From contig CALHGZ010000002.1 of the NCBI GenBank assembly GCA_938031175.1, forward strand, positions 139,242 to 203,241: a stretch of DNA of 64,000 nt, read 5' to 3'. Below are positions 12,115 to 32,864 of this stretch, one piece after another. Numbering within the stretch: the first letter of the stretch is position 1; each line of letters opens with the position of its first letter. The notes beneath the pieces are model-generated. The model was not told the DNA's origin and made no database searches. It saw only the letters and a list, made by a program, of their open reading frames with translations. A program made the position numbers and the translations under genes. The DNA is from Candidatus Kapaibacterium sp. Lineage in GTDB: Bacteria > Bacteroidota > Ignavibacteria > Kapaibacteriales > UBA2268.

Positions 12115-14952
12115 TTATTTTATCAGAGTGAAAATAGTTTTGATAACTTCGCTTCCGTCGCTGAATACACAAAGATAAGCACCACTATGAAATCCATTCA
12201 AAGATATTTTTAAATCATAACTTCCTTTTGGTAAATTCTGATTTATTAAATCAGCAACTAATAAGCCATTTGCATTGTATATTCTTAGAATACAATGATT
12301 ATCAAATGGCTTAGTAAATGTTATATTAATATTTTCATTTGCAGGATTAGGATATACATTCATTGAATACTGATTTGATGGTATGACTATTTGTCTGATT
12401 TTTGTGGCACATACATCGCTCAAAGCTACAGTGTCAATATGAAGTTTGGTATGGGTGCATCTTCCTTCATTTATGATTATTTTATGGTTTATGTTAGCAA
12501 CTTTACTTTTGAAATTTTCATCAGATGATGAATACCAAGGAAGATATGCTAAAAATGTAAGCTTAAGAATATCGCCATTACCATTTAAAATACTGTTTCC
12601 AATTGATTCAAATTTAAAAGTTACTTTCTCGAGTTCACGTTGAGAATAGATTTTTTCTTTTTTTACTTCTTGAATATTGAATTTTGCTCGTAATAAATCA
12701 TCGGAAGAAGACCTTGACAAATCAAGATACAGGAAATCATTAGGATAAACAATTTGTATTTCGAACATTTTAATATGTGCTTTAGTTAAATCAGGGAAAT
12801 TGTCGCTTTGAATAGTATAAATGAAATTTTCACCTGCCTGTATATAATTTTTATCGAATTTTGCTTTGCTTGCAATTTCAAATTTCAAGGACTCAATCCA
12901 TATATATAGAACTAATGGTTCATTTAAAAAACTACTATAAATTTCAAGTTTTGCAATTTCGTTATGAATTCTTCCTGTTGGATTGAATTCTATAAATATG
13001 TCTTTCTCAGAGTTAGCTTCAAGTATGAATTGAGTATTAGCATCAGCAGGGTTTTTAAATTTTAGGAAATCTGAGTTTTGTATTATTTTAATTGAATCTA
13101 TTTGAATGGGATTGTTCGAGTAATTTATGATAATAGGCTTCAAATCAACTACTTCATCAGCACAAATGGAAATTGTATCACCGATTCCAGTTAAATTTCT
13201 TTCTAAACCTTCTCCAATTAGAGTAATTTCAGTGATTTCATAAGAGTTGGTTTCTGGCTTTAGCTTTGCTGAATGTGTACCGAAACGCTGTGCAACAAAA
13301 TCTATATTGATCAATATTTTCTCGCCCGGAGGTATTGATAAATGTGTAGCAGGTAGCCCAAGTGTACTTTTATTAAGGCGGAATCCTTCTGTGCCGTAAT
13401 TAATTCCATCAGTTGAGATTTCATTGCCTGTTGGCACACTGATAAGGTCGTAAATATACAAGGTATCTTCAAATTGCCATCTTAAGTTTTCAATTTCAAT
13501 TATACTACTTTTGGGATTGTTATAATCATTGATAAATGTTGTTCCAATTTGATATATCTGATTTTTTGTATTGGCAGCGGTACCGGTACCAGTTAATTCA
13601 GTTTGTAGAGGGAGATTGTATTCGTTTATAAAATTGAGTATTAATCGGTGTTCTCCAATTTCAAGTGGATGAAATGTTACTGGAATTGTGATACTTGTTT
13701 GTGCTGGAATAGTTAAATTGTCAAAAGCACTACGGTTGAATTTAAAAGCATCGCTTTTATCTGAAATGGTTGAATCAATTCGAATAATTTTGAAGTCGAC
13801 ATTATCAGAATTCGTTATTTTGATAATTTCTTCTTCAGGTGGATATGGTCCACTTGGAGCTCTGGGGGATAGATCTATGCGTTTGCGTCCCCAGTTATAT
13901 CGTTCTGTAACAAAGATATTTTCAGCCGAACCTTCACCTCTAATGTAACAAATGCTGTCAGATTTTGATGCATCACTCCTGAAAATAATTGAATCAAGGA
14001 ATAAACCGCTTGTATTTGGAGTGAATCTAATTTTGAATGTATCTTTGGATAAGGGGTCTAATTTGAGTGGATTTAAGTCTGATATTTCAGTGATAGTTTT
14101 GGGAAGGATTAATTGAAAAACCGTACTATTGAATGGCCCGCGATAAGAATTTACAACAAGTTCGGTATTTCCAGTATTTGTCAATATGAACATTTTTTCA
14201 GAAGTATTCCCAATTTTTACTTTCCCAAAATCAATATCACTTATTCTAATTTCTGGTTCGCCAACTTTTGCTTCTATAAATGCGGAATAATATGTTGCAC
14301 AAGAATCTGACGCACCAATTGAATCACGAAAAACTCCATATTCTTTTGCTTCGAATTGAAGGTAAAAGTTTGTAAACTCGCCGGGTTTTAGAATAGTTGG
14401 ATTTCTTAAGCCATTGATTTTATAGTTTTTACCACTGCTTTTGAAATCCACTGAGGAGATGAACGCAATATGCTTATTTGAGATATTTCTGATTGTAAAT
14501 TCATTTTCCGATGTGCTGCCAAAAGGCACATTGCCAAAGCTATAAAATTTCGGTTCAATTATTAATTCTGGTGCTATGTATTCGATCGTGATGGTTGTAT
14601 CATTATTGGCAGCATCACTAAAAGTTATAACAGCTTTGGCATCAGCAAGATAATTTTTGACTTTAAGTTTCCAGGTAGTCGTTACAGTAACACCGGGGAT
14701 AAACTCAGCCCATTCAAGTATATAATTATAACTTTTCTGCGAATCTAGCTCAATTTTGGCTAAATTAGAGCGTATCGAAGGGTCATTGGGCATATCTGTT
14801 ACTGTGGCACCATTGACAGCTCCCTTGCAAGCAAAAGTCCATTGTGGGCGTGGGGGATCTTTGTCAAGTGAATAGCTAAAATACGAAGAAAAGAAAAATA
14901 GAATTGTTATAATTTTTATCCAGAAAAATATGACTTTGGAATTATTGAGCAT
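12115..14952 (-). CDS. T9SS-secreted protein with multiple ASH/Hydin-like Ig-fold domains
   Basis: 945 aa with N-terminal signal/TM. There are repeated about 100-aa modules (FGNVPFGSTSENEFTIRNIS..., IDFGKVKIGNTSEKMFILTNTGNTELVV...) typical of ASH/choice-of-anchor-D beta-sandwich domains. The C-terminal MNVYPNPANENINITF...IFTLIK is a T9SS CTD. Confidence 0.6.
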   Translation of the reverse strand: MLNNSKVIFFWIKIITILFFFSSYFSYSLDKDPPRPQWTFACKGAVNGATVTDMPNDPSIRSNLAKIELDSQKSYNYILEWAEFIPGVTVTTTWKLKVKNYLADAKAVITFSDAANNDTTITIEYIAPELIIEPKFYSFGNVPFGSTSENEFTIRNISNKHIAFISSVDFKSSGKNYKINGLRNPTILKPGEFTNFYLQFEAKEYGVFRDSIGASDSCATYYSAFIEAKVGEPEIRISDIDFGKVKIGNTSEKMFILTNTGNTELVVNSYRGPFNSTVFQLILPKTITEISDLNPLKLDPLSKDTFKIRFTPNTSGLFLDSIIFRSDASKSDSICYIRGEGSAENIFVTERYNWGRKRIDLSPRAPSGPYPPEEEIIKITNSDNVDFKIIRIDSTISDKSDAFKFNRSAFDNLTIPAQTSITIPVTFHPLEIGEHRLILNFINEYNLPLQTELTGTGTAANTKNQIYQIGTTFINDYNNPKSSIIEIENLRWQFEDTLYIYDLISVPTGNEISTDGINYGTEGFRLNKSTLGLPATHLSIPPGEKILINIDFVAQRFGTHSAKLKPETNSYEITEITLIGEGLERNLTGIGDTISICADEVVDLKPIIINYSNNPIQIDSIKIIQNSDFLKFKNPADANTQFILEANSEKDIFIEFNPTGRIHNEIAKLEIYSSFLNEPLVLYIWIESLKFEIASKAKFDKNYIQAGENFIYTIQSDNFPDLTKAHIKMFEIQIVYPNDFLYLDLSRSSSDDLLRAKFNIQEVKKEKIYSQRELEKVTFKFESIGNSILNGNGDILKLTFLAYLPWYSSSDENFKSKVANINHKIIINEGRCTHTKLHIDTVALSDVCATKIRQIVIPSNQYSMNVYPNPANENINITFTKPFDNHCILRIYNANGLLVADLINQNLPKGSYDLKISLNGFHSGAYLCVFSDGSEVIKTIFTLIK

Positions 14953-15152: not shown

Positions 15153-16583
15153 ATGGATGAAAAGAAAAAAGTTCGCTTAAAAGATTTTCCGTTTACATTC
15201 TGGGTAGTTATAGTTTTTGAATTTTTTGAGCGGGGTTCATATTATGGTGTGATGAGTATATTATCTGTATATTTAACTGACCATCTTGGATTTTCTAAAG
15301 AGAATGTTGGTCTAATTAAAAGTACTATTCAGCCATTATTATATTTTTTACCGATATTTGCAGGTGCAATTGCTGATAGAATGGGATATCGAAAGACTTT
15401 AATGATAGCTTTTTCTTTACTTGGATTGGGTTATTTTCTAACAAGTCAAAACACTGAATATACTTTGGTATTTGCTTCGCTTGTAATAATGGGCTTTGGT
15501 GCAGGTACATTTAAACCGATTATAAGTGGTACTATTGCTAAACTTACTGATGAAAGAACAAGTACTGTGGGTTTTGGGATATTTTATTGGTCAATTAATC
15601 TTGGTGCCTTTTTGTTTCCCTTGATACTTGTACCTATACTGAAAGCTATTGATTGGTCCTATGTATTAATTGCCTCAGCTATTTGCACAGGTCTGATGGT
15701 GATTCCTACTATATTTATTTATAAGGAACCTCCGAGAGAAGAAATAAAGAAAGCTGGTTTTGGCCAAGCTTTAGTTGATGTCTTAAATAAAATCTGGCAA
15801 GTCGTTCTCGATTGGAAATTTATACTTTTCATTGTTATTTATTCTATGTTTTGGATTCTCTATTTTCAAATGTTCGATACTGTTTTGTGGTACGTTAATA
15901 TGTTTGTTGATGCGACGCCGTTGAATAATACTATATCGCCGGTGTTGGAATCTTTATTTGGTTTCAAATGGGAATTTGGTGTAGAACACGTTACTGTAAT
16001 AAATGCTATGACTATAATTCTATTGCAATTAATTGTATCGGCAATTGTCAAAAATACTAAGGCTCTTCCTACAATGATTGCAGGTATTTCGATGGGCATT
16101 TTAGGAATGGGAATTTTAGCATTAGATTCGAATATATGGATTTTTATGTTAGGTATATTTATTTTTTCTATCGGTGAGATGACTGCACATCCCAAATTCA
16201 TTTCCTATTTAGGTACAATTGCCCCTCAAGATAAAAAAGCCACATATATGGGATTTGGTTTTCTCTATGGTGTACCAAGTTCATTGATTGGTCCCATTCT
16301 CGGTGCTAATTTATATGTTTTGCTCGTTGATAATCCTATGATCTCATTTATAAGAACTAAACTTGCTGAAGTTGGTTCGGAAATTACTTTGCCAGCAAAT
16401 ATAAGTATTACTGAAGCTATTCAAGCAGCAGAATCTATTGGATTGACTAAACAGGACATCTTACCATACGCCCATACCTCCGAATTATGGCTTATATTTT
16501 GTGGTATTGGTGTCTTGTGCATAGTGGGATTAGTCTTGTACGATAGATTGATTGGTGCCAGAAAAGCTGGAGACCTGAAATAA
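15153..16583 (+). CDS. POT/PTR2-family proton-dependent oligopeptide transporter (MFS)
   Basis: EFFERGSYYGVMS matches the PTR2 signature ExxERFxYYG. 476 aa with about 14 TM segments. Confidence 0.75.
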   Translation: MDEKKKVRLKDFPFTFWVVIVFEFFERGSYYGVMSILSVYLTDHLGFSKENVGLIKSTIQPLLYFLPIFAGAIADRMGYRKTLMIAFSLLGLGYFLTSQNTEYTLVFASLVIMGFGAGTFKPIISGTIAKLTDERTSTVGFGIFYWSINLGAFLFPLILVPILKAIDWSYVLIASAICTGLMVIPTIFIYKEPPREEIKKAGFGQALVDVLNKIWQVVLDWKFILFIVIYSMFWILYFQMFDTVLWYVNMFVDATPLNNTISPVLESLFGFKWEFGVEHVTVINAMTIILLQLIVSAIVKNTKALPTMIAGISMGILGMGILALDSNIWIFMLGIFIFSIGEMTAHPKFISYLGTIAPQDKKATYMGFGFLYGVPSSLIGPILGANLYVLLVDNPMISFIRTKLAEVGSEITLPANISITEAIQAAESIGLTKQDILPYAHTSELWLIFCGIGVLCIVGLVLYDRLIGARKAGDLK

Positions 16584-16585
16584 TC

Positions 16586-18544
16586 TTAATCCGAGGGAAT
16601 GCGGATTATTACACTGCGGTTGAGTATCCTTGTAAAGGGATATTCATTTGAAAATATTTGTTCTTGAGGTATAGCAATGTGATAGTTATTACTTTGCAGT
16701 TGCAGTTCTTTAATTATAGCAAGCGCTCGTGAACGTGCAAGATTTAAATTATATTCAACTGTACCAATATTATCTGTAAGCGGTACAATTTCAATTTTCT
16801 TTCCGCGTGCAATGCTTTCTTTTACATAGTTGGTAATTGTTGTATCTAAATAATAGAAATCGGATTTATCAAATTCAAAATATGCAATAATAAATTGCTC
16901 CATTGTGGTTCCATTTAAGTTAACTGGATTTATTATCTGTGTATCAGTATTTATTCTTTTGCCAAGATAAATCTTTAGGCTAGTGTCAGCATTAATGATA
17001 TTGCCAAAATCATTAGCTCTTGTTGTCAATTTAAATGTCAAATAGTTAATAGTATTTAGATTGCTAAGTTCTTTGAATTTTGATGGTCTAAATACGAAAT
17101 TAGTTTCTTTATTTGTGAATTCGCCAATTTTTAAATTAGCAACTGAGTATGTTATTATACCATTGACTTCAAAATTATCGTAATTAGTTTCTACTTTGGG
17201 TAAAATAGTAAAAACAATATCATCGATTGTGATTATTTCTTCCTGTTGGTAAACCTCCAGTGAGCTAATTCCATCAACTTTTATTTCTATCCTATTGAAT
17301 TCATCTTTGATTAGGGGATTTGGCAAATTGTTGAGGTTCACTTTTTTAATTTCAGTATTGATTTTTTGGGCGTTAATAGCATTGTTTTTAAAAATATTTA
17401 GCAACTTGTCAAGCCTTGCTTTAGCGATTTGCTCATTTCCGTCTTCGGTAATATAAGTTATCAAGGTTAAATCGTTTAAAGATTTAAATCTGTAAATTTC
17501 TAAAAATGTTTCTAATGCCTTAGCCTGAGCCTTTTCCATATCATTAAAATTAGGATCATCTAAATATTCAGGTTCAATTTGATTATTTTGATAAAATATA
17601 TAAGGTAAAATTTTATATTTTTTTATAATTTTTTTTACATTAAAATTCATATCAACCGTATCAGCATTTTGTAGTTTTTTATCATTTTGCAGAAGCGATA
17701 AATCAATTGATAGAACTTTAGGTTTTGGTGGTTCTGGAAGAATCAATGGAGGATATGGTGGATTTAAAGGTGGAGGTGGAAGTGGTTTTGGAAAAGTGTA
17801 GGTAAGTGCTAATCCCGCAGTAAGATTTATATATTTCCAATTTAGCGAGTTAACTAAATTGTTAAGTCCTAACCTGAAGTCAATAAATGATTTGATTTTC
17901 CAATTATCCAATTCAAACGTATAATAGGAAGCACCAAAGTTTAAGCCATATAAGATGTTTGTGAATTGGGGTAATTCAGCAGAAATTGAGTTGCGAGTTT
18001 TACTACCATCTATGAAAAAAGCATCCTCTGGTGATTTTAATTTTTCTTCGTATGAGAAATTATAATCTATTGGGATACCCAAATGGAAACCTAACTGAAA
18101 AGATACTAGTTGTTTCGTAAATGGATGAAGACTGATAGCTGGTCTCAGAATAATTGCATTAATCTTGGTTTTAAGACGGTGTTCTGTAATTGTTTTTAAA
18201 TAATCATTGTCTCGTATGTAATGGCCAATAAATTCCTCGACAAAGTAATTTGCTGATATATCAGAATAAGAAATTTTTAGTGCGGTAGAGTTTTTTATTC
18301 CAAATAAATTGCGTGGATTGTAATATTCTGCTTCAAATAGGAAATCTGGCGCTAAACCAAAAGCGAAACGATAATCTGCTGAACATTGATTATAATTTGT
18401 TAAAGTTGTAAATTTTGAATGATATATATTACCTGAGAGAGAAGCTCCAAAGGAAATATTAAATGGGGATAACTCGCTGCTTTTAGATATCGAAATAAAT
18501 GTAAAATGAAGAATTAAAATTTTTAATATTAGTTTGATACTCAT
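16586..18544 (-). CDS. outer-membrane protein: N-terminal beta-barrel-like domain, poly-Pro linker, C-terminal OmpA-like domain
   Basis: Signal peptide. The first 250 aa have an alternating amphipathic beta-strand pattern. Pro-rich linker PKPLPPPPLNPPYPPLILPEPPKPK. The C-terminal IVPLTDNIGTVEYNLNLARSRALAI resembles the OmpA_C peptidoglycan-binding block (..TD..G....N..LS..RA.AV). The start ATG overlaps the stop of the upstream T9SS cargo gene (ATGA). Confidence 0.55.
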   Translation of the reverse strand: MSIKLILKILILHFTFISISKSSELSPFNISFGASLSGNIYHSKFTTLTNYNQCSADYRFAFGLAPDFLFEAEYYNPRNLFGIKNSTALKISYSDISANYFVEEFIGHYIRDNDYLKTITEHRLKTKINAIILRPAISLHPFTKQLVSFQLGFHLGIPIDYNFSYEEKLKSPEDAFFIDGSKTRNSISAELPQFTNILYGLNFGASYYTFELDNWKIKSFIDFRLGLNNLVNSLNWKYINLTAGLALTYTFPKPLPPPPLNPPYPPLILPEPPKPKVLSIDLSLLQNDKKLQNADTVDMNFNVKKIIKKYKILPYIFYQNNQIEPEYLDDPNFNDMEKAQAKALETFLEIYRFKSLNDLTLITYITEDGNEQIAKARLDKLLNIFKNNAINAQKINTEIKKVNLNNLPNPLIKDEFNRIEIKVDGISSLEVYQQEEIITIDDIVFTILPKVETNYDNFEVNGIITYSVANLKIGEFTNKETNFVFRPSKFKELSNLNTINYLTFKLTTRANDFGNIINADTSLKIYLGKRINTDTQIINPVNLNGTTMEQFIIAYFEFDKSDFYYLDTTITNYVKESIARGKKIEIVPLTDNIGTVEYNLNLARSRALAIIKELQLQSNNYHIAIPQEQIFSNEYPFTRILNRSVIIRIPSD

Positions 18545-21500
18545 CTTACAATCACCAAAAAGCCAACATCAAAGCTAGTATTTGAACGCACCATAATTTT
18601 ATATGAAGCTGGTGGTAAATGGCTGATATCGAGTACGATATCATTTACACCCATATTAGCATAAGACTTGTGTTCATCCATTATCATACCTATCTGATTG
18701 AAAATCATTATTTTATATTCGTCTTGATTTTCAGAATAAAAATTGATTTTTACTTGTTCAGAAGCTGGATTAGGTATGATTGAATTTATTTGTATTTTTT
18801 TGTCATTATGAATAATAAGCCTATCTTTGCAAACTCCGATTATTTGCAATGACCCATTTTTAAATTCGATTGAAATTGCATTGCCCCAATAGTTCATTTT
18901 ATCAGAGAATGAAATATCAGTATAGGTAGTATCAGCAATACCAGCAACTCCGATAATTTCAGTAACATTACCTTCAACAGGGAAATCACCTTCTACTCTG
19001 AACTTGATATACCTGAATTGATTATCGGTATAATTGTTTATTATTTCTGCTTTACCATATTGACTGCTTATTTCCGTAGGGAAAAATAGTTTTTTGTTTA
19101 GAATAATTTCAGCGTTAAAAAATCTTATTCCAGAATAATGACCATTCTCTATATTAATGTATTTAATTGGAATTTTTGTAAATTCTTTTGGGTCGGCACT
19201 AATATTTGGTATTGATATAATCGAATGAGCAATATATCTTCCTAAAAAAATATTGAAATATTCTATGCAAGGTTCTGTTTTAAAAGTTAATTTAGTTTGT
19301 TTATCTCCCGTGCCATTCCATTTTATTTTAATTGATGTTTCTTGCAAGGGAGGAATTGAAATTGGAAATGTAGTTAAAAGAACATAATCACTATTATTGT
19401 TATCAAAAGCAGCTTCAATTAATTTTATAGTATGGTCGCTGTTATTTTTTATTTTTAACTCTCTTTCGGGGATTTCTGGGATGAATAACAGTGGATTGTG
19501 ACTGAAAGATAAATTATTTCCAATGCCTTTTCCTGATACAGGCAACTCTAAAAATATTTTTTTCTGATTGGAATGATATATTCGTAATTTGGCATCATAT
19601 CTTATTGTTTCAATTGGTCTAAAAATGAGAGCCAGAGAAAAAGTGGATTCTGCATCTATTATTGTATCGTAGATTGAATATTTAGTAAAATATGGTGAAT
19701 ATTTGTCACTAATAAATTCAATGTAATTAATTTTTAATGGTACAGGATCTGAATTGACGAATAAATCAATAATTTTCTCATTAATGGTACCGACACATTT
19801 TTCTCCGAAATCAATATTTCCCACCAAAAGTTTGATGTTTCGATTTTTGCTGTATTTTTCCAATGGTATATAGAATTCACCATAACATTCAGAAAAGATT
19901 ATGATTGTATCACGAATTATACCTGTATCAAGAGGAGTAAATCTGTATTTTAAATTTAAACATTCATTTGGTAAAAGCAATTTTGTATCGCTAAAATTAT
20001 CAATATAGAAATGCACACCATATTTCATTCGGGCTGAATTAAAGCGGATATTGGTGGTTCCGATGTTACATACCGCAGATGTTATTGTGTATTCTTTTGT
20101 TTCACCTATAAATGAAGAATCGAATTCTGTTTTGGCTAATTCGATCTTGGGTTCAACAATGCTGAATGTTCCGGGACTTATATATTCTTCTGGATAGGCA
20201 AAATATTGGATAACAAGATTTTTGAAACCTGATGAAACTGCTGTAAGCGAATGCCCATCGGGAGATAATTCAAAATCATTTAATGGTTCATTTGTAATAT
20301 CAATAGCTCCAACATAATCCCCTGAGACTAAGTCTAAATAGGCTATTTGAGGATTGTACTCAGAGCCAATAGCAAGTACAGTCGAATTAGGACTGAACTG
20401 AAGTTTTACCGGATCAGTAAAGGTTTTTCTGAGCGTGCGGACTATTTTATTTAAATCTAAATGTAATACGTGAATTTCGTTTGTGCTTATACTGGTTGGA
20501 GTTGGTATTGGTTTTTTACAACCGAGAGCTAAAAATTTACCACTTGAGGAAAAGCTCATTGTCAAAATTATTGGTAAATGAGAAAAATCAATGCGTTTGA
20601 AGATTGAGTACTCAGGAATTTTCATTAGTAATAATTCTCCATTTAATAGATAGACCGCAGCTGTATCGCCATTTTGATGGTATTTCATTGTGCCAATGGG
20701 ATAATCAAATGTAATATGCCTTAAAAATGTACCATCTTGAGATGAATGTATAGCGATTTGATTGCCAAGTCTAGGAATAAGAGCAATATGATTTTTTCTG
20801 TAATCCACAATCATCTCTTTTATTTTGAAATTGCTATCTATTTGGATTTTGGAAAAAGGTGTTGATATGCCTTTGTGAAAGAAAGCAAGTGTGTCTGATT
20901 TATTGGAATTAATTTGGTTGTAAGCAAGTACAAAAACTGAATCACCGCTTAAATAGCTAATACCGTATATATTGTAAATAATTGATGAATTCTGAATATT
21001 ATTAAAGTAATAAGTATTTATTAGCCTATAGCTTTTTGTATCCCATTCAGTAATTTTGCCAGATGAGTAAACTGCTAATATTTTCAATCCATCAGGACTA
21101 TATATGACTTTTTTGATTGGTCGAAGGTCGTCATTGAGTGCAATTTGATTTGTCTTGGAAAATTCATTTTTAATCTTAATTTTTGCGTTATTAGTATAGG
21201 TTTTTGGCACAAGCCAATGGAACAGAGAATCATCGCTGGAACCAAGGTAAGTCCAATTGCTTCCACCATTGGAACTAAAGTAAACTTTTATAGGTAATTC
21301 GGGCCCAGAACCTTTCCATTTAACTGGATAAATTTCGCATGGGGATAAAATTTCTCCACCAATCGGTTGTTCGAGTTTTAATAATGGGTTATAGTCAATT
21401 TGGAATTTATTAGCAGTAAGGTATAAATGTTCACGGAAACCGTTTTCGTAATGAACGGTAAAAACATCACTATGAAAATCGTTTGAACCGGCTTTGAAAT

Positions 21501-22155
21501 AGATATCAACAAGGTTATTTGAACCTAAAGATGATTTGATCGGTGGAGGGGTTCTGTCGAATTCATTCCCCTGCCATTGATAAGTAAAATAGGGTGTTGT
21601 GAGTGTGATCGAATCAATTTGAACAGGCATTTCAATTTTGTCTTTGTTCAGTTTGCCCCTTAAAGCGGTAATTTTGACTTGCCGCAAAGTTTGGATTCCT
21701 TCCGGGATAGTTCCGAAATGCTGTTCTTGTATGGTTTGTCCCTGTGGATTGCGTATATATATTTTGGGATAGTGGAATTTTGTATAAAAGCCACTAATTT
21801 TAGCACTTGTATTATTATGTGTTACTATGAAATCAACGTAATTAAATTCATTGTAACCTTTTAATTGAGATATCCATTTAACTTCGTACCAATCACCAGA
21901 TTTCAATACTGAAAATGGCTTATAGGCGCGATTACTTTCAGTAATGATGATATTTTCTACATTAAGATTGATGGGGGTGTTGTTGTAGTAAGCCCTAAGA
22001 AAAGCTTTAAAACGAGGCATATCAGCAACATCAACAAATTGATAAATTGAATCAATATACCTTAATTCTAAATTTAGTTGTGCGTATGAGGGAATAATTA
22101 AAAAAAATAACGACAAAATTATGTAAATTTTTAAAACCAATTTCAACTTATCCAT
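18541..22155 (-). CDS. large T9SS-secreted protein (beta-propeller/WD40-like region plus Ig-like domains)
   Basis: 1204 aa with signal peptide. It has WD40/PD40-like segments (YSPDGLKILAVYSSGKITEWD, SPDGHSLTAV) and ASH-like modules (IDFGEKCVGTINEKIIDLFVNSDPVPL). The C-terminal IIPNPASEQVKINFYS...GFLVIVR is a T9SS CTD. Confidence 0.6.
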   Translation of the reverse strand: MDKLKLVLKIYIILSLFFLIIPSYAQLNLELRYIDSIYQFVDVADMPRFKAFLRAYYNNTPINLNVENIIITESNRAYKPFSVLKSGDWYEVKWISQLKGYNEFNYVDFIVTHNNTSAKISGFYTKFHYPKIYIRNPQGQTIQEQHFGTIPEGIQTLRQVKITALRGKLNKDKIEMPVQIDSITLTTPYFTYQWQGNEFDRTPPPIKSSLGSNNLVDIYFKAGSNDFHSDVFTVHYENGFREHLYLTANKFQIDYNPLLKLEQPIGGEILSPCEIYPVKWKGSGPELPIKVYFSSNGGSNWTYLGSSDDSLFHWLVPKTYTNNAKIKIKNEFSKTNQIALNDDLRPIKKVIYSPDGLKILAVYSSGKITEWDTKSYRLINTYYFNNIQNSSIIYNIYGISYLSGDSVFVLAYNQINSNKSDTLAFFHKGISTPFSKIQIDSNFKIKEMIVDYRKNHIALIPRLGNQIAIHSSQDGTFLRHITFDYPIGTMKYHQNGDTAAVYLLNGELLLMKIPEYSIFKRIDFSHLPIILTMSFSSSGKFLALGCKKPIPTPTSISTNEIHVLHLDLNKIVRTLRKTFTDPVKLQFSPNSTVLAIGSEYNPQIAYLDLVSGDYVGAIDITNEPLNDFELSPDGHSLTAVSSGFKNLVIQYFAYPEEYISPGTFSIVEPKIELAKTEFDSSFIGETKEYTITSAVCNIGTTNIRFNSARMKYGVHFYIDNFSDTKLLLPNECLNLKYRFTPLDTGIIRDTIIIFSECYGEFYIPLEKYSKNRNIKLLVGNIDFGEKCVGTINEKIIDLFVNSDPVPLKINYIEFISDKYSPYFTKYSIYDTIIDAESTFSLALIFRPIETIRYDAKLRIYHSNQKKIFLELPVSGKGIGNNLSFSHNPLLFIPEIPERELKIKNNSDHTIKLIEAAFDNNNSDYVLLTTFPISIPPLQETSIKIKWNGTGDKQTKLTFKTEPCIEYFNIFLGRYIAHSIISIPNISADPKEFTKIPIKYINIENGHYSGIRFFNAEIILNKKLFFPTEISSQYGKAEIINNYTDNQFRYIKFRVEGDFPVEGNVTEIIGVAGIADTTYTDISFSDKMNYWGNAISIEFKNGSLQIIGVCKDRLIIHNDKKIQINSIIPNPASEQVKINFYSENQDEYKIMIFNQIGMIMDEHKSYANMGVNDIVLDISHLPPASYKIMVRSNTSFDVGFLVIVR

Positions 22156-24447: not shown

Positions 24448-26370
24448 ATGAAAATTAAAAATTTAGGGACTCATTTCATTATTATTTTAATTCTTTTTCT
24501 GTTTAGCTACCAAGCATACACACAGGCTATTTATTTTTATAAGATTTTCGATGACCGCTTCCCAACAATGAGAATACAATGGATAGCACGTCAGGACGGT
24601 GCTGATTCATTAAGGTTACCTTGGGATCAGTTTAGAATTTCAGAAAATAATATCCCCAAAACCGAAACAATTACAGTTGATTGTGGAGAAAAACCAATAC
24701 CAGAAACATCGGTTCTATTATTAATTGACGCTTCCATTTCGATGGCAGAAAAGCTAGATCCAAAAACTAATGAAACTAAACTTGATTGGGTTCGTTTAGC
24801 TGTCTATGATTTCCTTGATTCACTGAAATTTATTGGGGAAACAAAAGTTTCAATGGTCTTTTTTGCTAATGGTACCAAATGGGCTGATGGGCAAACACCT
24901 TGCGTTGGTTGGAAAGGTGGGGATGATATAGAAACAATGAAAAAAGCAATCGAAACAGTAAAATATTCTCCTGGAAAAACGGACTTTGGTCTTGCATTTT
25001 ATGGTACAACAATTCGACCATTCCACGAATTGATGAACAGACCATGGGATATTCAAAGACATTTAATTTTTATCACTGATGGTGAGCCAGAAGTACTATT
25101 TACAACTGTAATTCAGGATTCGGTTGTAAAATTAGCACGCAGAAGCAGAACTTTCGTACATTGCATTTCTATTAAAGAACCAGTCCCTCAGGGTGTACAA
25201 TATGTTACAGCTCAAACCGGTGGAGCTAGATTACACGCAACAAACAAAGCAGACGTTCGAAGGCATCTACTAAGTTTAGTTACAAAAGTGCAAAGAAAAT
25301 GGTTCTGTGAACTACTTTGGCAAGCTGATTTTACCTGTGATGAATCAGGACGTAACAGAACAGTATCCATATCGAGAGAATCACCAGCAGGTTCTGAAAA
25401 ATTGCACGATACAGCTTACACTGCACCAGCATTTAGCGTCAATACGATGAAATTGTCCAAATCGCAAATGCTTTTTGGTACACCTGAAACTGCAAAGGGT
25501 CAAGGCACAGTTACACTAAATTATACTGGTGGCAATTATCAAGTAAGTGATTTAGAATTCACTCCAAAAGGATTCCTGGAGGTTAAAAACTGGGGAGGTT
25601 CGCCACCACCATTTAGATTAAAAATAAATGAAACCAGAAATATTGTTATTGGATATCCGGCTGGTACACAGCAAACAACATCGAGAGTTATTAAAGCAAA
25701 TTTGAAAGTAGATGAGTATCCCTGTGATATTCCACAACTTGAGTTAATAACCTTATGTGGTGGAATTGTTGTTGAATCCCTGAATTTCGATGAAACTTTG
25801 AATAATACAACAACCAAACAAACTTTACAATGTGCATTTAAAAATAGAACAGCCGTGCCAATTGAAGTAACTGCTGAAATAAAAGGCGCCAACGCAGATG
25901 AATTCAAAATTTTATCACCTAAAAGCCAAGTATTAAATCCTGCTGGATGTATGGAAATTGAAGTTGAATTTGCTCCTAAATCCGTTGGTGACAAAACAGC
26001 TTATATTGAATATAAATTGCCGGAAAATTGTGATTCAGATTATAAAACTAATTTAACGGGCAAAGCGATCTTTAATTCTGTTGAGGGAGAATACATCGGT
26101 TTAGGAAATTTAAATAATATTATTGAATTAAGTCCTAATCCGGTTTCAGAAATTTTGAATTTGAAATTTTATGTTCCAGGTTTTTCAACAACAAAAATTG
26201 AATTATTCAATTCAATCGGTGTAAAAATTGAAACTATAATTGATCAAGAATTAGTTGAGGGTATTTATGAAGCTGGATTTTCAGTTTCTAATTTAGAAGC
26301 TGGGCTTTACTTTATCAAAATTTCAGCTGCTAATATCTCCGAAATTGAGCGTATTATTGTGATAAAATAA
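24448..26370 (+). CDS. secreted von Willebrand factor A (VWA) domain protein with T9SS C-terminal sorting domain
   Basis: Signal peptide. MIDAS motif LLLIDASISM (DxSxS) with FITDGEP downstream. The C-terminal LSPNPVSEILNLKFY...IIVIK is a T9SS CTD. Followed by a strong terminator. Confidence 0.65.
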   Translation: MKIKNLGTHFIIILILFLFSYQAYTQAIYFYKIFDDRFPTMRIQWIARQDGADSLRLPWDQFRISENNIPKTETITVDCGEKPIPETSVLLLIDASISMAEKLDPKTNETKLDWVRLAVYDFLDSLKFIGETKVSMVFFANGTKWADGQTPCVGWKGGDDIETMKKAIETVKYSPGKTDFGLAFYGTTIRPFHELMNRPWDIQRHLIFITDGEPEVLFTTVIQDSVVKLARRSRTFVHCISIKEPVPQGVQYVTAQTGGARLHATNKADVRRHLLSLVTKVQRKWFCELLWQADFTCDESGRNRTVSISRESPAGSEKLHDTAYTAPAFSVNTMKLSKSQMLFGTPETAKGQGTVTLNYTGGNYQVSDLEFTPKGFLEVKNWGGSPPPFRLKINETRNIVIGYPAGTQQTTSRVIKANLKVDEYPCDIPQLELITLCGGIVVESLNFDETLNNTTTKQTLQCAFKNRTAVPIEVTAEIKGANADEFKILSPKSQVLNPAGCMEIEVEFAPKSVGDKTAYIEYKLPENCDSDYKTNLTGKAIFNSVEGEYIGLGNLNNIIELSPNPVSEILNLKFYVPGFSTTKIELFNSIGVKIETIIDQELVEGIYEAGFSVSNLEAGLYFIKISAANISEIERIIVIK

Positions 26371-26592: not shown

Positions 26593-27597
26593 TCAGGGCA
26601 TTTTGCGTAAAAAAGTATAGCGCAGAATTTGTTCGAGAAGAAAGATTAAAAATGCAGGCAGTGCATAAATCCAAAATTCCTCTGTGTATTTTGTGAAATA
26701 AGCAACATCGATTTTTGTTTTTTCCATTTGGTCAATTTCAGCATAAATATTTTCGAGCGCTTTATTGTTAGTAGCCCTAAAGTATTTACCACCAGTCATA
26801 TTTGAAATTTGTTTTAAAAGTTCTTCATCTATTTGGACATCAACATAAACATATTGTGTTACTGTTTGGCCAAACCAATTACGAAATTGTTGTGGATATG
26901 GTGCTTTACCTCTTGTACCAACGCCGATAGTATAAACTTTAACATCGAATTGCTTGGCAATTTCTGCCGCTGTTATGGGTGCTATGTTCCCCATATTATT
27001 GACTCCGTCAGTGAGTAAAATAATTACCTTGCTTTTGGCATCGCTTTTTCTCAATCTAGAAACTGCAGTTGCTAAACCATCACCAATTGCAGTACCATCT
27101 TGTATATCTCCACTTTTGATTTTTGTCAATAAATTTTTTAGCACACTGTGGTCTATTGTTATTGGGCATTGGGTAAAGCTTTCACCTGCAAATATTACTA
27201 AACCAATGCGGTCGTCCTTTCGATTTTCTATAAATTGTAAAGCGGTTGATTTTGCAGCTTCAATACGGTTAGGTTTAAAATCTTCGGCAAGCATTGAGGT
27301 TGAAACATCTAATGCGATAACTATATCAATACCTTCTGTTGAAATAGATTTTTCACTTGAACTGGACTGAGGTCGAGCTAATGCCAAAATGACAAGCCCT
27401 ATGGATATCAATCTTAACAGAAATGGCAAGTGTATTAATCTTTGCCTTATTGATGGCTTAATTTTCATTATCGTATCAAATCCTGGGTAAGTTATGCTGG
27501 GATTGAATTTGTTCCAACGAAATATATACCATATAATCATCAAAGGTATGATTATCAGCGCGTACAAAAATTCTGGATTTGCAAATTTATATTCCAT
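26593..27597 (-). CDS. batA: BatA-like VWA-domain membrane protein
   Basis: Two N-terminal TM helices, then a VWA domain with MIDAS DVSTSM and LLTDG. C-terminal TM. The architecture is that of Bacteroides aerotolerance BatA. It is the last gene of the moxR operon. Confidence 0.7.
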   Translation of the reverse strand: MEYKFANPEFLYALIIIPLMIIWYIFRWNKFNPSITYPGFDTIMKIKPSIRQRLIHLPFLLRLISIGLVILALARPQSSSSEKSISTEGIDIVIALDVSTSMLAEDFKPNRIEAAKSTALQFIENRKDDRIGLVIFAGESFTQCPITIDHSVLKNLLTKIKSGDIQDGTAIGDGLATAVSRLRKSDAKSKVIILLTDGVNNMGNIAPITAAEIAKQFDVKVYTIGVGTRGKAPYPQQFRNWFGQTVTQYVYVDVQIDEELLKQISNMTGGKYFRATNNKALENIYAEIDQMEKTKIDVAYFTKYTEEFWIYALPAFLIFLLEQILRYTFLRKMP

Positions 27598-28586
27598 TAC
27601 TTGTCCTCTTTTTTATTTCCATTTGATATTTCAACCGGAATTGTACTTTTGACAAATTCGACAGCAGAATTGAAGCAAAAAGAATGCTCGTCGGGTAATG
27701 GCAGAAATTTTGCAAATTTGACAAGGTCGGCAATCTGGTACATTTTTCTTGAAGTTTCAATAAGACCATTATCTAAATTTAACTTTTCTAATTCGTATAA
27801 AATTTCATCTGATGTCATTTCTAATGCCATAATGTTAAAACGGCGTTCTATATATGTTCTAATAATATCGGTCAGTTTTGTGTAGTATAATTTTATTTCT
27901 CCCTTTTGCCATAATTTTTCATCGTTAAGTTTTCTCAATTCATCTAATGCAATTATATGAGGTGGTATTTTAGGGTCATAGTCTTGCAATAACTTATGTT
28001 TTGGTTTTCTTCTTTTGAGAAATTGAATAACTAAGTATATAGTTAGTGCCAGTAATAATAGCCCTATTATATATGGTAAAAATTCTTCGAAGGTATATGG
28101 GACATCAAGGGGTGGTTTTATGTCTCTTATAGTATCAGCTGTATCGATTGGTATTGTGGAAAATTTAACCATTAGTGGGGAAGTAGCTATCGGATATAAT
28201 TCCTTGGTATCTTCCTTCTCGTAAATGAAATAGAATGGAGGAATTTCAAAGTAACCTGAATCAAAACTTGTGATAATGAGGTTTTGCCGCATTATTCTTT
28301 GAGCATTTGAATCAATTGTATCGATTGGAGTACGTGCTAAAATTTCAATTTTTCCGATTGTGTCTGGAATTGTTGGGAAATTTAACCTTAAATTTTTAGG
28401 GAAAATGACTTCTAAAGAAAGCTTAATTTGGTCGCCAATTAAAACATCGTTTGTATCAATTTTTGCATTGGTTTGAATATCCAATGAGAGCAAAATATTG
28501 CTGCTGAATAAAACTAAAATTAGAGTTGATATTATAAATCTATATTTAGTTTTTCTATGTTTATTATAATTCTGTATTTTTTTCAT
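27597..28586 (-). CDS. Bat-operon-associated 2-TM membrane protein (DUF4381-like?)
   Basis: N-terminal TM, a 150-aa extracytoplasmic segment, a second TM (YIIGLLLLALTIYLVIQFL) then a cytoplasmic tail. The likely start is ATG 28586 (MKKIQNYN), which forms an ATGA overlap with the upstream gene stop. The ORF-track start is 28619. The family assignment is from memory of Bat operon synteny only. Confidence 0.4.
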   Translation of the reverse strand: MKKIQNYNKHRKTKYRFIISTLILVLFSSNILLSLDIQTNAKIDTNDVLIGDQIKLSLEVIFPKNLRLNFPTIPDTIGKIEILARTPIDTIDSNAQRIMRQNLIITSFDSGYFEIPPFYFIYEKEDTKELYPIATSPLMVKFSTIPIDTADTIRDIKPPLDVPYTFEEFLPYIIGLLLLALTIYLVIQFLKRRKPKHKLLQDYDPKIPPHIIALDELRKLNDEKLWQKGEIKLYYTKLTDIIRTYIERRFNIMALEMTSDEILYELEKLNLDNGLIETSRKMYQIADLVKFAKFLPLPDEHSFCFNSAVEFVKSTIPVEISNGNKKEDK

Positions 28587-31500
28587 TTGACAATAATTAT
28601 ATTTTTGCTTAATTGACATCCCTGGTGCTCAATTACAAGATTATATAATCCGTTGGATATTGACGAGAGATTGATTTTGTTTGTTTTTAGTCCGTTATAT
28701 TGAAATCCTATTTTTAAGTCATAAATTTTTTGAGAATTGAGATTATACAGGGAAATTTGGGTAAATCCGAATTGTCCTATTTCATATTCTATCGTAATTT
28801 CATTGTTTGCGGGTTGTGGATAAATATTAATAATTAGAATTGAAGGCAAAGTTAAATACTTTGGAACTGAAACTATTGATTTTGTTCTAAAAAAATTAAT
28901 TTCTGAAAATATTCCTTGACCATATTCATCAATTGAGGCAACTCGCCAATTGTATCGTTGATTACTTTGCAAATCGTTAAGTTCAAATTCATTTACTTTT
29001 ATAATTGTATCAATTATTGGAGAAGTCATTACTATTTTGTCTGAAACCTGTAATCTATATTTAATTGCATGGGGAACTTCTGACCATTTAATTAAAGTAT
29101 TGACATCGACGTCAGTTGCTCCAAATTGAGGAAATTCTAAAGTTGGGGGATTAATACCTGTTGTGAATTCGAATATCTGATTTGAGATAGATTCTCCACC
29201 TGAGGATAATGCTTTGACTTTCCAGAATAGTTTTTTACGTCCTTGAGGTAATCCCTCTACTAAATATGTGTTTGATTTTATACCATTGTACTCTTTAATT
29301 ATGTTTTTAAATTCAATATCTGTTGCTATTTCAAGTTTGTAAAGAGAAGCTTCATTAACATTTGACCAGACAAATGTAACTGTATCGAGTATCGCTCCTT
29401 GTTTTGAAACAGGATAGATAAGTTGAGGAGCAGAAGGCAAAGGCGGAAGTGATTTTAAATAAGCATTAAAAATTCCTAATCCATGGGTAGCTACAGCTGT
29501 AAAACCATCCGATGGCCGAGCATCTATCATTTTGACTACTGTATTACCGATAGTCTCGGCGCCTTCCTGTTGCCAAACCGTGTAAATACCATTTAAATAA
29601 GCAGTCGAATACAAGCCAGTTGAGGTTCCAACTAAATATAATCTTTTATTTCCGATTGGTAATATTTCCAACCAGTGAACTGCAGGACCTCTGCCCAAAC
29701 CGCTTGGGAATTCTTCTAAATTACCAGCTACAGGTGTCCAATTTGAACCGGCATCTGTTGAGTGGAATATACTTATCACGTTGTAATTTGAAAAAACTAC
29801 GAAAATCTCATCGGCATTTTCCGGATCAATAGCGATACAAGAAACCCAAGCATTTTGTGGAAAATTTTTCCCTGTGATATTTTTTGGAATTGGATTACCA
29901 ATATGAGCATTATCTAAACGGAATACTTCACCGGATGAAGTGCCATAATATACTATATTTGCTGGCTTTCGTGATATATCACCAGCAGTTATAAGTCCAT
30001 CTCGAGTTACAACAGTATTGGATAAATCTATCCGTGTGTTACTTAAGCTATCCCAATTTATTGATGTGGAATCATTAGAATTGACAAAAGGAATTTCGTC
30101 TAAATTATTATTTCTCCAAATTATTTTACCACCACCTACATACATTCTTTTGTTATCATTTGGGTCAAGTCCGAAAAAATGATTCCAGATAAAACCAACA
30201 CCACCTGCTGGGTCAATTCTTGTTTTTACAAGATTGTTGCCTTTATCATCCATTAAAATACGCCACATTTTTACTTCTACTGGGCTTGTGGAGGTATTTT
30301 GTGAAGTGTAAAATATTTGCCCCCCGTCGGCTATTTTACAGGTTAGACCGTCTCCGTGAGATGGATAAGTCCAAGGCATCATTAAATCAGATGAATATGA
30401 ATAAAGAGTACCATTATCCTGAGTTCCTCCAATAATTTGTTGGCTACCACCGGGAGCATTATCAATAGCACAAGTATAAAATTGAGTTGTGAAAAAGCCA
30501 TTATTGAGCGAGATCCATTCAACTCTATCTGCAAGGCAGTTTAAAGTTTTATGAACACCGCCATCAGTACCAGTAAACATTACATTTGGGTTTGATGGCA
30601 AAAACACAATTGCATGTTGGTCAGCATGTTGATTTGGGTATCTGTAAGTGTACCAGCATTGTTCGTCGGGATCGGGACAAGTTCCTCCGATCCAAGCAAA
30701 ATTATTTGAAGAGAATCCATCATTTGAACGATAAAGGCATACACCACCGAGAAAGATTATATTTGTATCTTGTGGATGTACCTTAATAACTAGGTTATAG
30801 GAGGTTTGTGAATTCATTTGACCTCGTACCAAATCCGGTTTTGGGACATAAGCTGATTTGTTAACCCATAAGCCGCCATTGCCTGAGCCATCGCCCGACA
30901 AATATTTATATTTCCAGATACTGTGCCAAAGTCTATCACCACGTGAATTTGTAGTTTCTTTGCCACTATTAGGCGTTTCTGCTGCAAAAAAAACCTGATT
31001 TTCATCTGAAGGAGCAATTGCTATAACAATCCTTCTAAATTGCTCAGGCATAAAATTAGGTGTTATATTAACCCAGTTTTCGCCATCAGTAGAGCGGAAA
31101 ATTCCTTTTACAACAGAACCAGTAGCTTGGTATGCGACTTGACTCATTGTAGCATAAAATGTTCCCTTCGAGGTTACAGCTATGTCAGTAAAGAAACTGT
31201 AATTATTACCAAATCCACCCAGGACGGTTTTCCAGCTATTTCCACCGTCTGTAGAACGGACAATGGCACCAGCAGTTGTGCTTGCATAGATTTCATCTCT
31301 TTCTAAAGGAGCTACTGGATTGACTACTATGTTCCAGATATAGTCAAAAGGGTTTTCCCAGCTATTTGGTCTGCCTGTTGATGTTGAAGGAAGAATGAAC
31401 CAATTTAATCCACCATCAGTTGATTTATAAATACCATCACCGCTGATTCTTGCCGAATTGCCCCAAAATTCACCTGTACCTGCGTACCATATATTTTCTT

Positions 31501-31978
31501 TGCCGGGTCTTGTGTCTTGAACAATACAAGATATAGATTTTAATTGGTCAGGTTTAGTGACTTTTTTCCAACTTTTACCTCCATCGGTGGAACGCCAAAT
31601 ACCACTGGAGACACCAGCAGCTATTATTATATTTTCATCTCTTATATCCAGAGCCAAAGCACGTGTGCGACCTCCAATTTCATATGGTCCGCGCATTTGC
31701 CAATCATAGCTTAAAATACGTTGATTATTGAATTTGATATTATAATATGAGCCGGGTAAAGTTTTGGCAAATTCTAATTCATCGGTGCTTATATTGCGTG
31801 GTATAAGACCAGTGCGTGGGTCTCTCAATTTAAGATACTCCCAATTATCTCTTGCTGAGAGAACAGGACCATCTTCGATCAGGTATTGAGATTTTTGTTT
31901 TGTTTTAAATGCAATTATAAATATTATTGGAATTAATAATAATGCAATGATTAGCGCTGATAAAATTTTAGTTTTCAT
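28583..31978 (-). CDS. BNR/Asp-box beta-propeller plus fibronectin-III-like domains, T9SS-secreted
   Basis: 1131 aa. There are six Asp-box motifs S-x-D-x-G-x-x-W (STDGGKSW, STDGGLNW, STDGGNSW, STDGENW, SNDGFSS, STDAGSNW). Two FN3-like modules are present (...FVWSNVNEASLYKLE..., ...LIKWSEVPHAIKYRLQV...). The C-terminal INIYPQPANNEITIEYEIGQ...IIIVK is a T9SS CTD. Confidence 0.65.
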   Translation of the reverse strand: MKTKILSALIIALLLIPIIFIIAFKTKQKSQYLIEDGPVLSARDNWEYLKLRDPRTGLIPRNISTDELEFAKTLPGSYYNIKFNNQRILSYDWQMRGPYEIGGRTRALALDIRDENIIIAAGVSSGIWRSTDGGKSWKKVTKPDQLKSISCIVQDTRPGKENIWYAGTGEFWGNSARISGDGIYKSTDGGLNWFILPSTSTGRPNSWENPFDYIWNIVVNPVAPLERDEIYASTTAGAIVRSTDGGNSWKTVLGGFGNNYSFFTDIAVTSKGTFYATMSQVAYQATGSVVKGIFRSTDGENWVNITPNFMPEQFRRIVIAIAPSDENQVFFAAETPNSGKETTNSRGDRLWHSIWKYKYLSGDGSGNGGLWVNKSAYVPKPDLVRGQMNSQTSYNLVIKVHPQDTNIIFLGGVCLYRSNDGFSSNNFAWIGGTCPDPDEQCWYTYRYPNQHADQHAIVFLPSNPNVMFTGTDGGVHKTLNCLADRVEWISLNNGFFTTQFYTCAIDNAPGGSQQIIGGTQDNGTLYSYSSDLMMPWTYPSHGDGLTCKIADGGQIFYTSQNTSTSPVEVKMWRILMDDKGNNLVKTRIDPAGGVGFIWNHFFGLDPNDNKRMYVGGGKIIWRNNNLDEIPFVNSNDSTSINWDSLSNTRIDLSNTVVTRDGLITAGDISRKPANIVYYGTSSGEVFRLDNAHIGNPIPKNITGKNFPQNAWVSCIAIDPENADEIFVVFSNYNVISIFHSTDAGSNWTPVAGNLEEFPSGLGRGPAVHWLEILPIGNKRLYLVGTSTGLYSTAYLNGIYTVWQQEGAETIGNTVVKMIDARPSDGFTAVATHGLGIFNAYLKSLPPLPSAPQLIYPVSKQGAILDTVTFVWSNVNEASLYKLEIATDIEFKNIIKEYNGIKSNTYLVEGLPQGRKKLFWKVKALSSGGESISNQIFEFTTGINPPTLEFPQFGATDVDVNTLIKWSEVPHAIKYRLQVSDKIVMTSPIIDTIIKVNEFELNDLQSNQRYNWRVASIDEYGQGIFSEINFFRTKSIVSVPKYLTLPSILIINIYPQPANNEITIEYEIGQFGFTQISLYNLNSQKIYDLKIGFQYNGLKTNKINLSSISNGLYNLVIEHQGCQLSKNIIIVK

Positions 31979-31987
31979 TTTTAATTA

Positions 31988-32863: not shown

Positions 32864-32864
32864 T

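Follow-up and report, generated by a model that had tools for sequence, protein, structure and literature searches.

We examined a pair of adjoining genes in a 64,000-nucleotide stretch of DNA from Candidatus Kapaibacterium sp. (contig CALHGZ010000002.1 of GenBank assembly GCA_938031175.1, forward-strand positions 139,242 to 203,241; hereafter the window, densely coding at a G+C content of ~32 %, in whose coordinates all positions are given unless stated otherwise). Both are minus-strand genes. The upstream gene (18541..22155) encodes an all-beta protein of 1204 residues ending in a type IX secretion system (T9SS) C-terminal domain (CTD) of type A, as assigned from its open reading frame (ORF) and Pfam, and is referred to here as the cargo; the downstream gene (16586..18544), the partner, encodes 652 residues and, from its ORF and an AlphaFold2 model, is predicted to be an OmpA-class outer-membrane protein able to bind peptidoglycan. 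Cargo stop and partner start share the four nucleotides ATGA (18541..18544; the plus strand reads TCAT), an overlap reported in a first, sequence-only reading of the window and confirmed here on the coding strand, with the clarification that both ORFs are on the minus strand. Neither ORF is a chance frame, since both have homologues that span their full length at identities down to 23–30 %. These relatives, close and distant, come from metagenome-assembled genomes (MAGs) labelled Ignavibacteria, Kapabacteriales/Kapaibacterium or ‘Bacteroidetes bacterium’.

The pairing of the two genes is conserved well beyond the window. Clustering of the top partner-family members places 118 of 148 in the window's clade and 30 of 148 in a second clade, and genomic contexts for the former were taken from different subclusters: the window itself, loci L004, L005/6, L007, L042 (a single locus from a metagenome scan with alignment A5), L043, L045, L047, L049, L051 and L053, together with L052, which was reached from a cargo homologue. 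In 12 of these 12 contexts an orthologous beta-propeller/Ig/CTD gene (1187–1218 aa) stands directly upstream of the partner on the same strand; three of the twelve are mutually close relatives, so that the set amounts to about ten independent lineages. Junctions between cargo and partner range from −4 to 47 nt, the 4-nt overlap recurring in L007 and L047 and the remaining pairs being separated by gaps of 2–47 nt. The other flanking genes vary (HSP33, ribosomal S6/L9, the NADH dehydrogenase 30-kDa subunit, PKD-CTD and Ig-CTD proteins, an amino-acid kinase), and because adjacency holds in every context while the surroundings otherwise differ, the cargo and partner genes are a genuine conserved module; the co-occurrence that the sequence-only reading had supposed is thereby established. 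Cargo and partner identities also correlate in a mirror-tree comparison (r = 0.93), a correlation explained by shared phylogeny and not used as evidence.

The cargo is built from a succession of beta domains. Its hydrophobic N-terminus ends SYA|Q and, read by eye from the sequence, has the character of a Sec signal peptide (residues 1–24, 22084..22155); the inferred cleavage at SYA|QLNLE would place a Gln at the mature N-terminus (residue 25; 22084–22086, minus strand), matching the ‘Q-rule’ for Bacteroidetes signal peptidase I substrates, a rule that does not extend to the entire Fibrobacteres–Chlorobi–Bacteroidetes (FCB) group (PMC5837995). A beta-propeller-like region follows at about residues 336–655 (20191..21150, boundaries approximate), indicated by weak WD40/beta-propeller Pfam matches across residues ~320–640 (THOC3, 2.8e-8; EML, 6.6e-8; ANAPC4_WD40, 24.9 bits), and then Ig-like repeats of the ASH/HYDIN/Cep192 type at about residues 656–965 (19261..20190; Pfam matches at ~670–960). 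Between these repeats and the sorting domain lies a segment that we delimit by conservation and by a hidden Markov model (HMM), the pre-CTD module (residues 966–1125, 18781..19260). The sorting domain itself (residues 1126–1204, 18544..18780) is matched by Pfam Por_Secre_tail (PF18962) over residues 1126–1193 with 32.3 bits (gathering score 27), in agreement with the sequence-only assignment of a T9SS CTD; TIGR04183 scores 14.3, under its cut-off of 23, and no type B CTD model of Pfam or NCBIfam matches the cargo at E≤1. Por_Secre_tail is recorded in all cargo orthologues, which align end to end at 27–43 % identity, and within the same genomes conservation is higher for the cargo (79/69 %) than for the partner (65/51 %). 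From this layout we infer export of the cargo by Sec and then by the T9SS via its type A CTD. Foldseek searches with an AlphaFold2 model of the cargo returned generic strings of Ig-like domains (TM 0.06–0.13) and were discarded; a viral-contig scan for the cargo found nothing.

No other part of the cargo is as conserved as the pre-CTD module (0.378, compared with 0.25–0.36 elsewhere), which is confined to cargos that have a partner. Its HMM (alignment A8), run on ORFs of ≥100 aa in the window and ≥120 aa in 55 loci, matches partner-adjacent cargos only and none of the many other CTD proteins encoded there. The window alone holds at least six genes for T9SS type A CTD proteins, namely an S8 subtilase (3612–5879), an ASH-Ig protein (12115–14952), the cargo (18541–22155), a VWA protein (24448–26370), a BNR/fn3 protein (28583–31978) and an M1 peptidase (48380–50353), of which the cargo alone is accompanied by a barrel/OmpA gene. 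Sequence and profile searches with the module found no match in Pfam or the PDB; a cohesin-like identity was a guess that these searches left unsupported, and it is not claimed. Outside the window's clade, L016 (Ignavibacteria GWF2_33_9) has a distant homologue of the partner, from the CC-bearing subgroup of the second clade, and ahead of it the gene for a 1287-aa Ig-like/type A CTD protein. This 1287-aa protein resembles the window cargo in the C-terminal module only, including the motif GSLKI-NIC-KNGG-DRL with its Cys-x-x-DR; because the module is here attached to a different passenger, a docking function of the module would be portable. The same locus encodes, after the partner homologue and with overlapping open frames, a 908-aa Peptidase_S41 (tail-specific protease) protein (L016 8318–11041), which could be a third member of a variant operon.

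For the partner, AlphaFold2 with 148 family sequences as alignment gave a model of mean pLDDT (predicted local distance difference test) 94.1. A hydrophobic signal-like segment is followed by ten long strands across residues 25–252 (17789..18472), interpreted as a beta-barrel of about 10 strands, and then by a poly-proline spacer (residues 253–277, 17714..17788), the sole low-confidence stretch of the model. The spacer includes the proline run PKPLPPPPLNPPYPPLILPEPPKPK at residues ~251–275, and every family member inspected has a similar proline-rich stretch at residue ~250–275. Beyond it comes a first periplasmic unit (residues 278–425, 17270..17713), modelled as a beta-sandwich (278–318) and an alpha/beta domain (~335–423) that is a degenerate OmpA-like domain; next, a second beta-sandwich (residues 426–545, 16910..17269; 429–545 in the model), the least conserved part of the protein; and finally an alpha/beta domain (residues 546–652, 16589..16909) predicted to be an OmpA-like peptidoglycan-binding domain. 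Conservation is concentrated in the barrel, the spacer and the last domain, the middle being more variable, and the barrel loops are conserved to the same degree as the strands; surface loops of OmpA are usually variable.

Assignment of the last domain rests on the family more than on the single protein. By itself the partner scores 21.4 bits with Pfam OmpA, below the 27.2 threshold, and meets only weak Pal/OmpA-type matches in NCBIfam, while the partner-family profile matches Pal (E 8.8e-7) and 60 of 73 relatives match Pfam OmpA (8 of the 73 match OMP_b-brl_2). Asp591, Gly594, Asn599, Leu602, Arg606 and Arg643 are invariant in 148 family sequences, and these include the Asp/Arg pair of the peptidoglycan-binding motif (Asp591, Arg606), so that the last unit probably binds peptidoglycan. 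Comparison by hhalign of the middle alpha/beta domain (residues 305–428) with the profile of the C-terminal OmpA-like domain gives a probability of 93.5 % (E 2.4e-7); the middle domain is without the TD..G..N motif, and Arg377 and Glu415 are near-invariant in it. The periplasmic arm resembles a duplicated (beta-sandwich + OmpA-like) unit. An exhaustive profile search finds 929 cluster representatives at E≤1e-30 (~900 clusters at 50 % identity), and the best 150 representatives are almost all full-length (610–720 aa); a word-indexed homologue search with the 73-sequence alignment returned 4 proteins only, having probably been swamped by proline-rich words.

The sequence-only reading had correctly picked out the signal peptide and beta-rich N-terminal region of the partner, its extreme proline linker, and the likeness of its C-terminal block to the OmpA peptidoglycan-binding motif. 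Its view that barrel, proline hinge and OmpA_C form an unusual fusion does not hold: the small N-terminal barrel and C-terminal OmpA-like domain are the classical layout of E. coli OmpA and Pseudomonas OprF, and the partner is an OmpA-class protein of that layout with an enlarged periplasmic arm. It departs from OmpA/OprF in having ~10 predicted strands rather than 8, ~270 extra periplasmic residues (two beta-sandwiches and a second, degenerate OmpA-like domain) and a conserved CC loop motif, in being obligately paired genetically with one T9SS cargo, and in that no curated family model covers it outside the OmpA domain.

The CC motif lies in the loop between the first two strands of the barrel, where the family consensus reads LPGxxxCC. 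Of the 118 members of the window's clade, 81 carry CC and 12 a single Cys or CxxC, and 25 are without cysteine in the loop. In the partner of the window this loop (residues 46–57) holds a single cysteine, Cys54 (codon 18383..18385, minus strand). On the side of the cargo, seven cysteines are conserved, an odd number: five fall in the Ig-like region (Cys696, Cys732, Cys757, Cys787 and Cys963), and one, Cys1109 (motif G-V-C-K-D-R; codon 18829..18831, minus strand), sits in the pre-CTD module 17 residues ahead of the CTD, in a low-confidence, unstructured linker of the cargo model (pLDDT 49.9). In L049 Tyr takes the place of Cys696 (20068–20070, minus strand) as well as of Cys732 (19960–19962, minus strand), and the other 11 orthologues keep the two cysteines; this joint replacement is consistent with an intramolecular disulfide inside an Ig-like domain.

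Presence of Cys1109 follows that of the loop cysteines. In the first 11 pairs the loop cysteines are missing in L007 only, and Cys1109 is likewise missing in L007 only (Ser). We then chose a partner entirely devoid of cysteine (P0017) and predicted beforehand that its cargo would lack Cys1109; the cargo in question (L053) has Val at this position. With L016 included, both features are present in 11 pairs, both are absent in 2 (L007 and L053), and no pair is discordant (Fisher's exact test on the 13 pairs, 1/78). In the cargo tree and in the partner tree alike, L007 and L053 belong to separate subclades. A general loss of exported cysteines in these two lineages was considered and rejected, as both keep the other six conserved cysteines of the cargo.

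Taken with the conserved pairing, these features lead us to favour, with some reserve, a reading in which the partner is a dedicated anchor, reaching from barrel to wall, that holds a type A cargo by means of module docking, in most cases a disulfide lock, and a tie to the wall, the whole being encoded in a conserved two-gene operon of Ignavibacteria/Kapabacteria-type bacteria within the FCB group. The product of the first gene would pass through Sec and then, via its type A CTD, through the T9SS; rather than being released it would be retained on the cell by docking of the pre-CTD module onto the surface face of the partner barrel; and in most lineages a disulfide joining Cys1109 of the cargo to the first-loop cysteine(s) of the barrel would lock the contact. 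The rigid poly-proline spacer would reach into the periplasm, where the partner would tie the complex to the cell wall. For its OmpA-like domains to reach the wall both termini of the barrel must be periplasmic, as standard barrel topology has them, and we infer from this that the first loop faces outward. The anchor reading gains strength from the specificity of the module for partner-adjacent cargos and from the cysteine co-variation. Its fullest form—a type A cargo held by protein, through module–barrel docking, a covalent Cys1109–loop disulfide, a continuous peptidoglycan-bound tether and a portable module—is a good deal more doubtful, and we put it forward tentatively.

Several observations weigh against the anchor reading. 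About 21 % of the window's clade is without loop cysteines, so that the disulfide cannot be essential, and the window partner has the single Cys54 in place of the consensus CC. The co-variation comprises two cysteine losses only among the 13 pairs; the cargo model, made from a 4-sequence alignment, reaches a pLDDT of 49.9; and the route by which a disulfide would form at the surface is left unexplained. No T9SS core machinery genes were seen within the 64-kb window, although the CTD proteins encoded there imply a T9SS. Partners of the second clade (L009/L010/L013, L014, L015 and L020; P0005-like) have no such cargo upstream. Finally, the type A CTD cargos of Porphyromonas gingivalis are held by anionic lipopolysaccharide (LPS), not by protein (PMC9143113).

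The second-clade loci have a gene order of their own. Their partners (~660 aa, one loop Cys) are followed by a DUF1800 gene, after a 3-nt gap or with an overlap, and then by a DUF1501 gene (L009 7127–12247; L020 1631–6826; L014 5414–8979; also L013), whose products show sub-threshold Por_Secre_tail scores of 24.4 and 18.6 bits; upstream there is a LysE gene, and L009, L013 and L014 have a second ~660-aa paralogue nearby. The adjacency to DUF1800/DUF1501 was rejected as a cargo pairing, CTD genes being too frequent in these genomes and the proteins having no pre-CTD module. L013 (JAGFIZ010000028.1) is labelled ‘Bradyrhizobiaceae bacterium’, has the gene order of L009/L010 (partner homologue, DUF1800, DUF1501-CTD) and encodes DUF1800 and DUF1501 products with Pfam scores identical to those of L009; the contig is probably mis-binned.

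Other explanations of the pair have to be set against a dedicated anchor. The two proteins might never touch, the partner being a general OmpA-type tether of outer membrane to wall whose gene sits in the operon of an abundant surface protein only for the sake of co-regulation. The classical OmpA/OprF architecture of barrel, proline hinge and OmpA_C suits such a tether, as do the family branch that occurs without cargo and the fifth or so of the window's clade that has no loop cysteines; yet co-regulation by itself sits poorly with adjacency in 12 of 12 contexts at 23–30 % identity despite turnover of the flanking genes, with a module that is specific to partner-adjacent cargos and recurs on a different passenger in L016, with the joint disappearance of the cysteines from two independent lineages, and with the conserved barrel loops, and we hold it to be unlikely. 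Alternatively the two could meet in the periplasm, the propeller of the first gene product binding the OmpA-like domain of the second, with a CTD that is vestigial or used later; TolB–Pal is an example of such a combination of beta-propeller and OmpA-like domain. The combination recurs (PorE has both in one chain; PMC9143113), and the second, degenerate OmpA-like domain of the partner would also be accommodated. Against this, all orthologues have kept the CTD, which scores above the Pfam threshold, the cargo has no PD40/TolB-type match, and what L016 has in common with the cargo is the pre-CTD module, not the propeller; of all the readings considered we give this one the least credence.

Two further proposals draw on known T9SS barrels. 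Were the partner a secretion carrier of the PorP/SprF kind, it would collect the cargo from the T9SS translocon and be needed for export itself, an idea that draws on the conserved pairing and on the resemblance of the gene linkage to sprB–sprF and other type B pairs (PMC12618676, PMC9143113). Linkage to the cargo gene (12 of 12 contexts) is, however, the one of four carrier traits that the partner has. It gives no match to the PorP_SprF profile (PF11751) at E≤1, nor do any of 73 relatives at E≤0.01; its small OmpA-class barrel differs from PorP/SprF, predicted to be a 14-strand PorV-like barrel (bioRxiv 10.1101/2020.05.13.094771); and the CTDs served by PorP/SprF carriers are of type B (PMC9143113, PMC12618676), whereas that of the cargo is of type A, handled by PorV in the species studied (PMC12618676). 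We accordingly rejected the partner as a PorP/SprF carrier by descent, and consider a carrier role improbable. The analogy to sprB–sprF and PorP drawn in the sequence-only reading fails as homology in all three respects (profile, barrel class, CTD type), whereas the cargo-plus-dedicated-anchor module it proposed stands as to the pairing and, as the best-supported reading, as to the anchor. The loop cysteines might also face the periplasm and bond a GldK/PorK-like structure, coupling the pair to a motor or hub, as the family consensus CC and the disulfides that twin-cysteine motifs of T9SS outer-membrane proteins form with GldK (PMC12635249) would allow. The motif of the partner, though, lies between strands 1 and 2, a surface loop by standard barrel topology, while that of SprF is instead in a periplasmic C-terminal tail (PMC12635249). 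Since such a bond would also leave unexplained the loss of Cys1109 in exactly the same genomes, we rate this proposal lower than the carrier, as quite improbable.

The anchor reading can be placed beside several characterized arrangements. In PorU–PorV and PorZ–PorQ, CTD-bearing proteins are retained by binding outer-membrane barrels. That attachment complex is therefore alike in keeping CTD proteins at the surface via such barrels (overview, PMC9143113); there, 14-strand PorV-type barrels hold an uncleaved CTD, whereas the cargo would instead be held by a separate pre-CTD module. The SprB–SprF and other type B pairs of Flavobacterium johnsoniae and P. gingivalis likewise link a cargo gene to that of a barrel which holds the product at the surface (PMC9143113, PMC12618676); the partner barrel differs from theirs in family and size and is fused to wall-binding domains, and the cargo CTD is type A, not B. 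In function the pair resembles the PorP–PorE–PG1035 complex of P. gingivalis compressed into two chains (PMC9143113, PMC7192894), with the barrel and the wall binder as one chain in the partner. A closer kinship to the wall anchor PorE (PG1058) was rejected: PorE is no nearer to the partner than other OmpA-like domains are, and the partner is without TPR, WD40 or CRD architecture and without a lipoprotein signal. Conserved twin cysteines in a T9SS-associated barrel also occur in SprF–GldK/PorG–GldK, where they form a function-relevant intermolecular disulfide (Liu et al. 2025, PMC12635249); those cysteines are periplasmic and bond a track lipoprotein, while the ones of the partner lie in a predicted surface loop and their co-varying cysteine, the proposed bonding mate, is in the cargo. 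A literature search on Ignavibacteria and type IX secretion found no paper on the cargo/partner pair.

Some features of the surrounding window are recorded here in their own right. A convergent MFS/POT transporter gene (15153–16583, plus strand) ends 2 nt short of the last base of the partner stop codon, an arrangement also present in the close relatives L001–L006; the 2-nt spacing (16583–16586) leaves no space for separate terminators. A promoter and terminator scan was uninformative, its counts equalling the shuffled expectation. The 945-aa ASH-Ig/CTD protein (12115–14952) corresponds to two consecutive genes (714 + 225 aa, the CTD being on the second) in two related MAGs (L005 11680–14525, L006 11493–14338), where the two-gene form reflects a gene that is split or frameshifted, or else a fault of assembly. 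Further along, a Bat/MoxR-type operon (26593–33851, minus strand) comprises a MoxR AAA_3 ATPase (32865–33851), a DUF58 protein (31988–32863), a 340-aa protein without a Pfam match (27597–28619) and a BatA/VWA protein (26593–27597), and has in its midst the gene for the 1131-aa BNR/Sortilin + fn3 + T9SS-CTD protein (28583–31978); a secreted CTD protein within a Bat operon is, to our knowledge, unusual. The VWA + CTD gene (24448–26370) adjoins this operon on the opposite strand.

Retention of T9SS products is known to follow two routes, type A products going via anionic LPS and type B products via PorP/SprF carriers, both worked out in a few Bacteroidota. The partner family is an uncurated, well-modelled OmpA subfamily that is obligately paired with a type A cargo and for which residue-level contact candidates are in hand: both the putative docking module and the pair of candidate cysteines have exact residue positions, and the size of the family permits the co-variation analysis to be scaled up computationally. 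Should the ordinary reading alone apply, what remains is an uncurated OmpA subfamily whose wall-binding unit is duplicated and half degenerate. Protein display on such cells would be a possible use of the docking module, provided that it is portable. And if the anchor reading is true, the pair would represent a third retention route, from a little-studied branch of the superphylum, in which a type A cargo is held on a wall-bound OmpA-class barrel, perhaps covalently.

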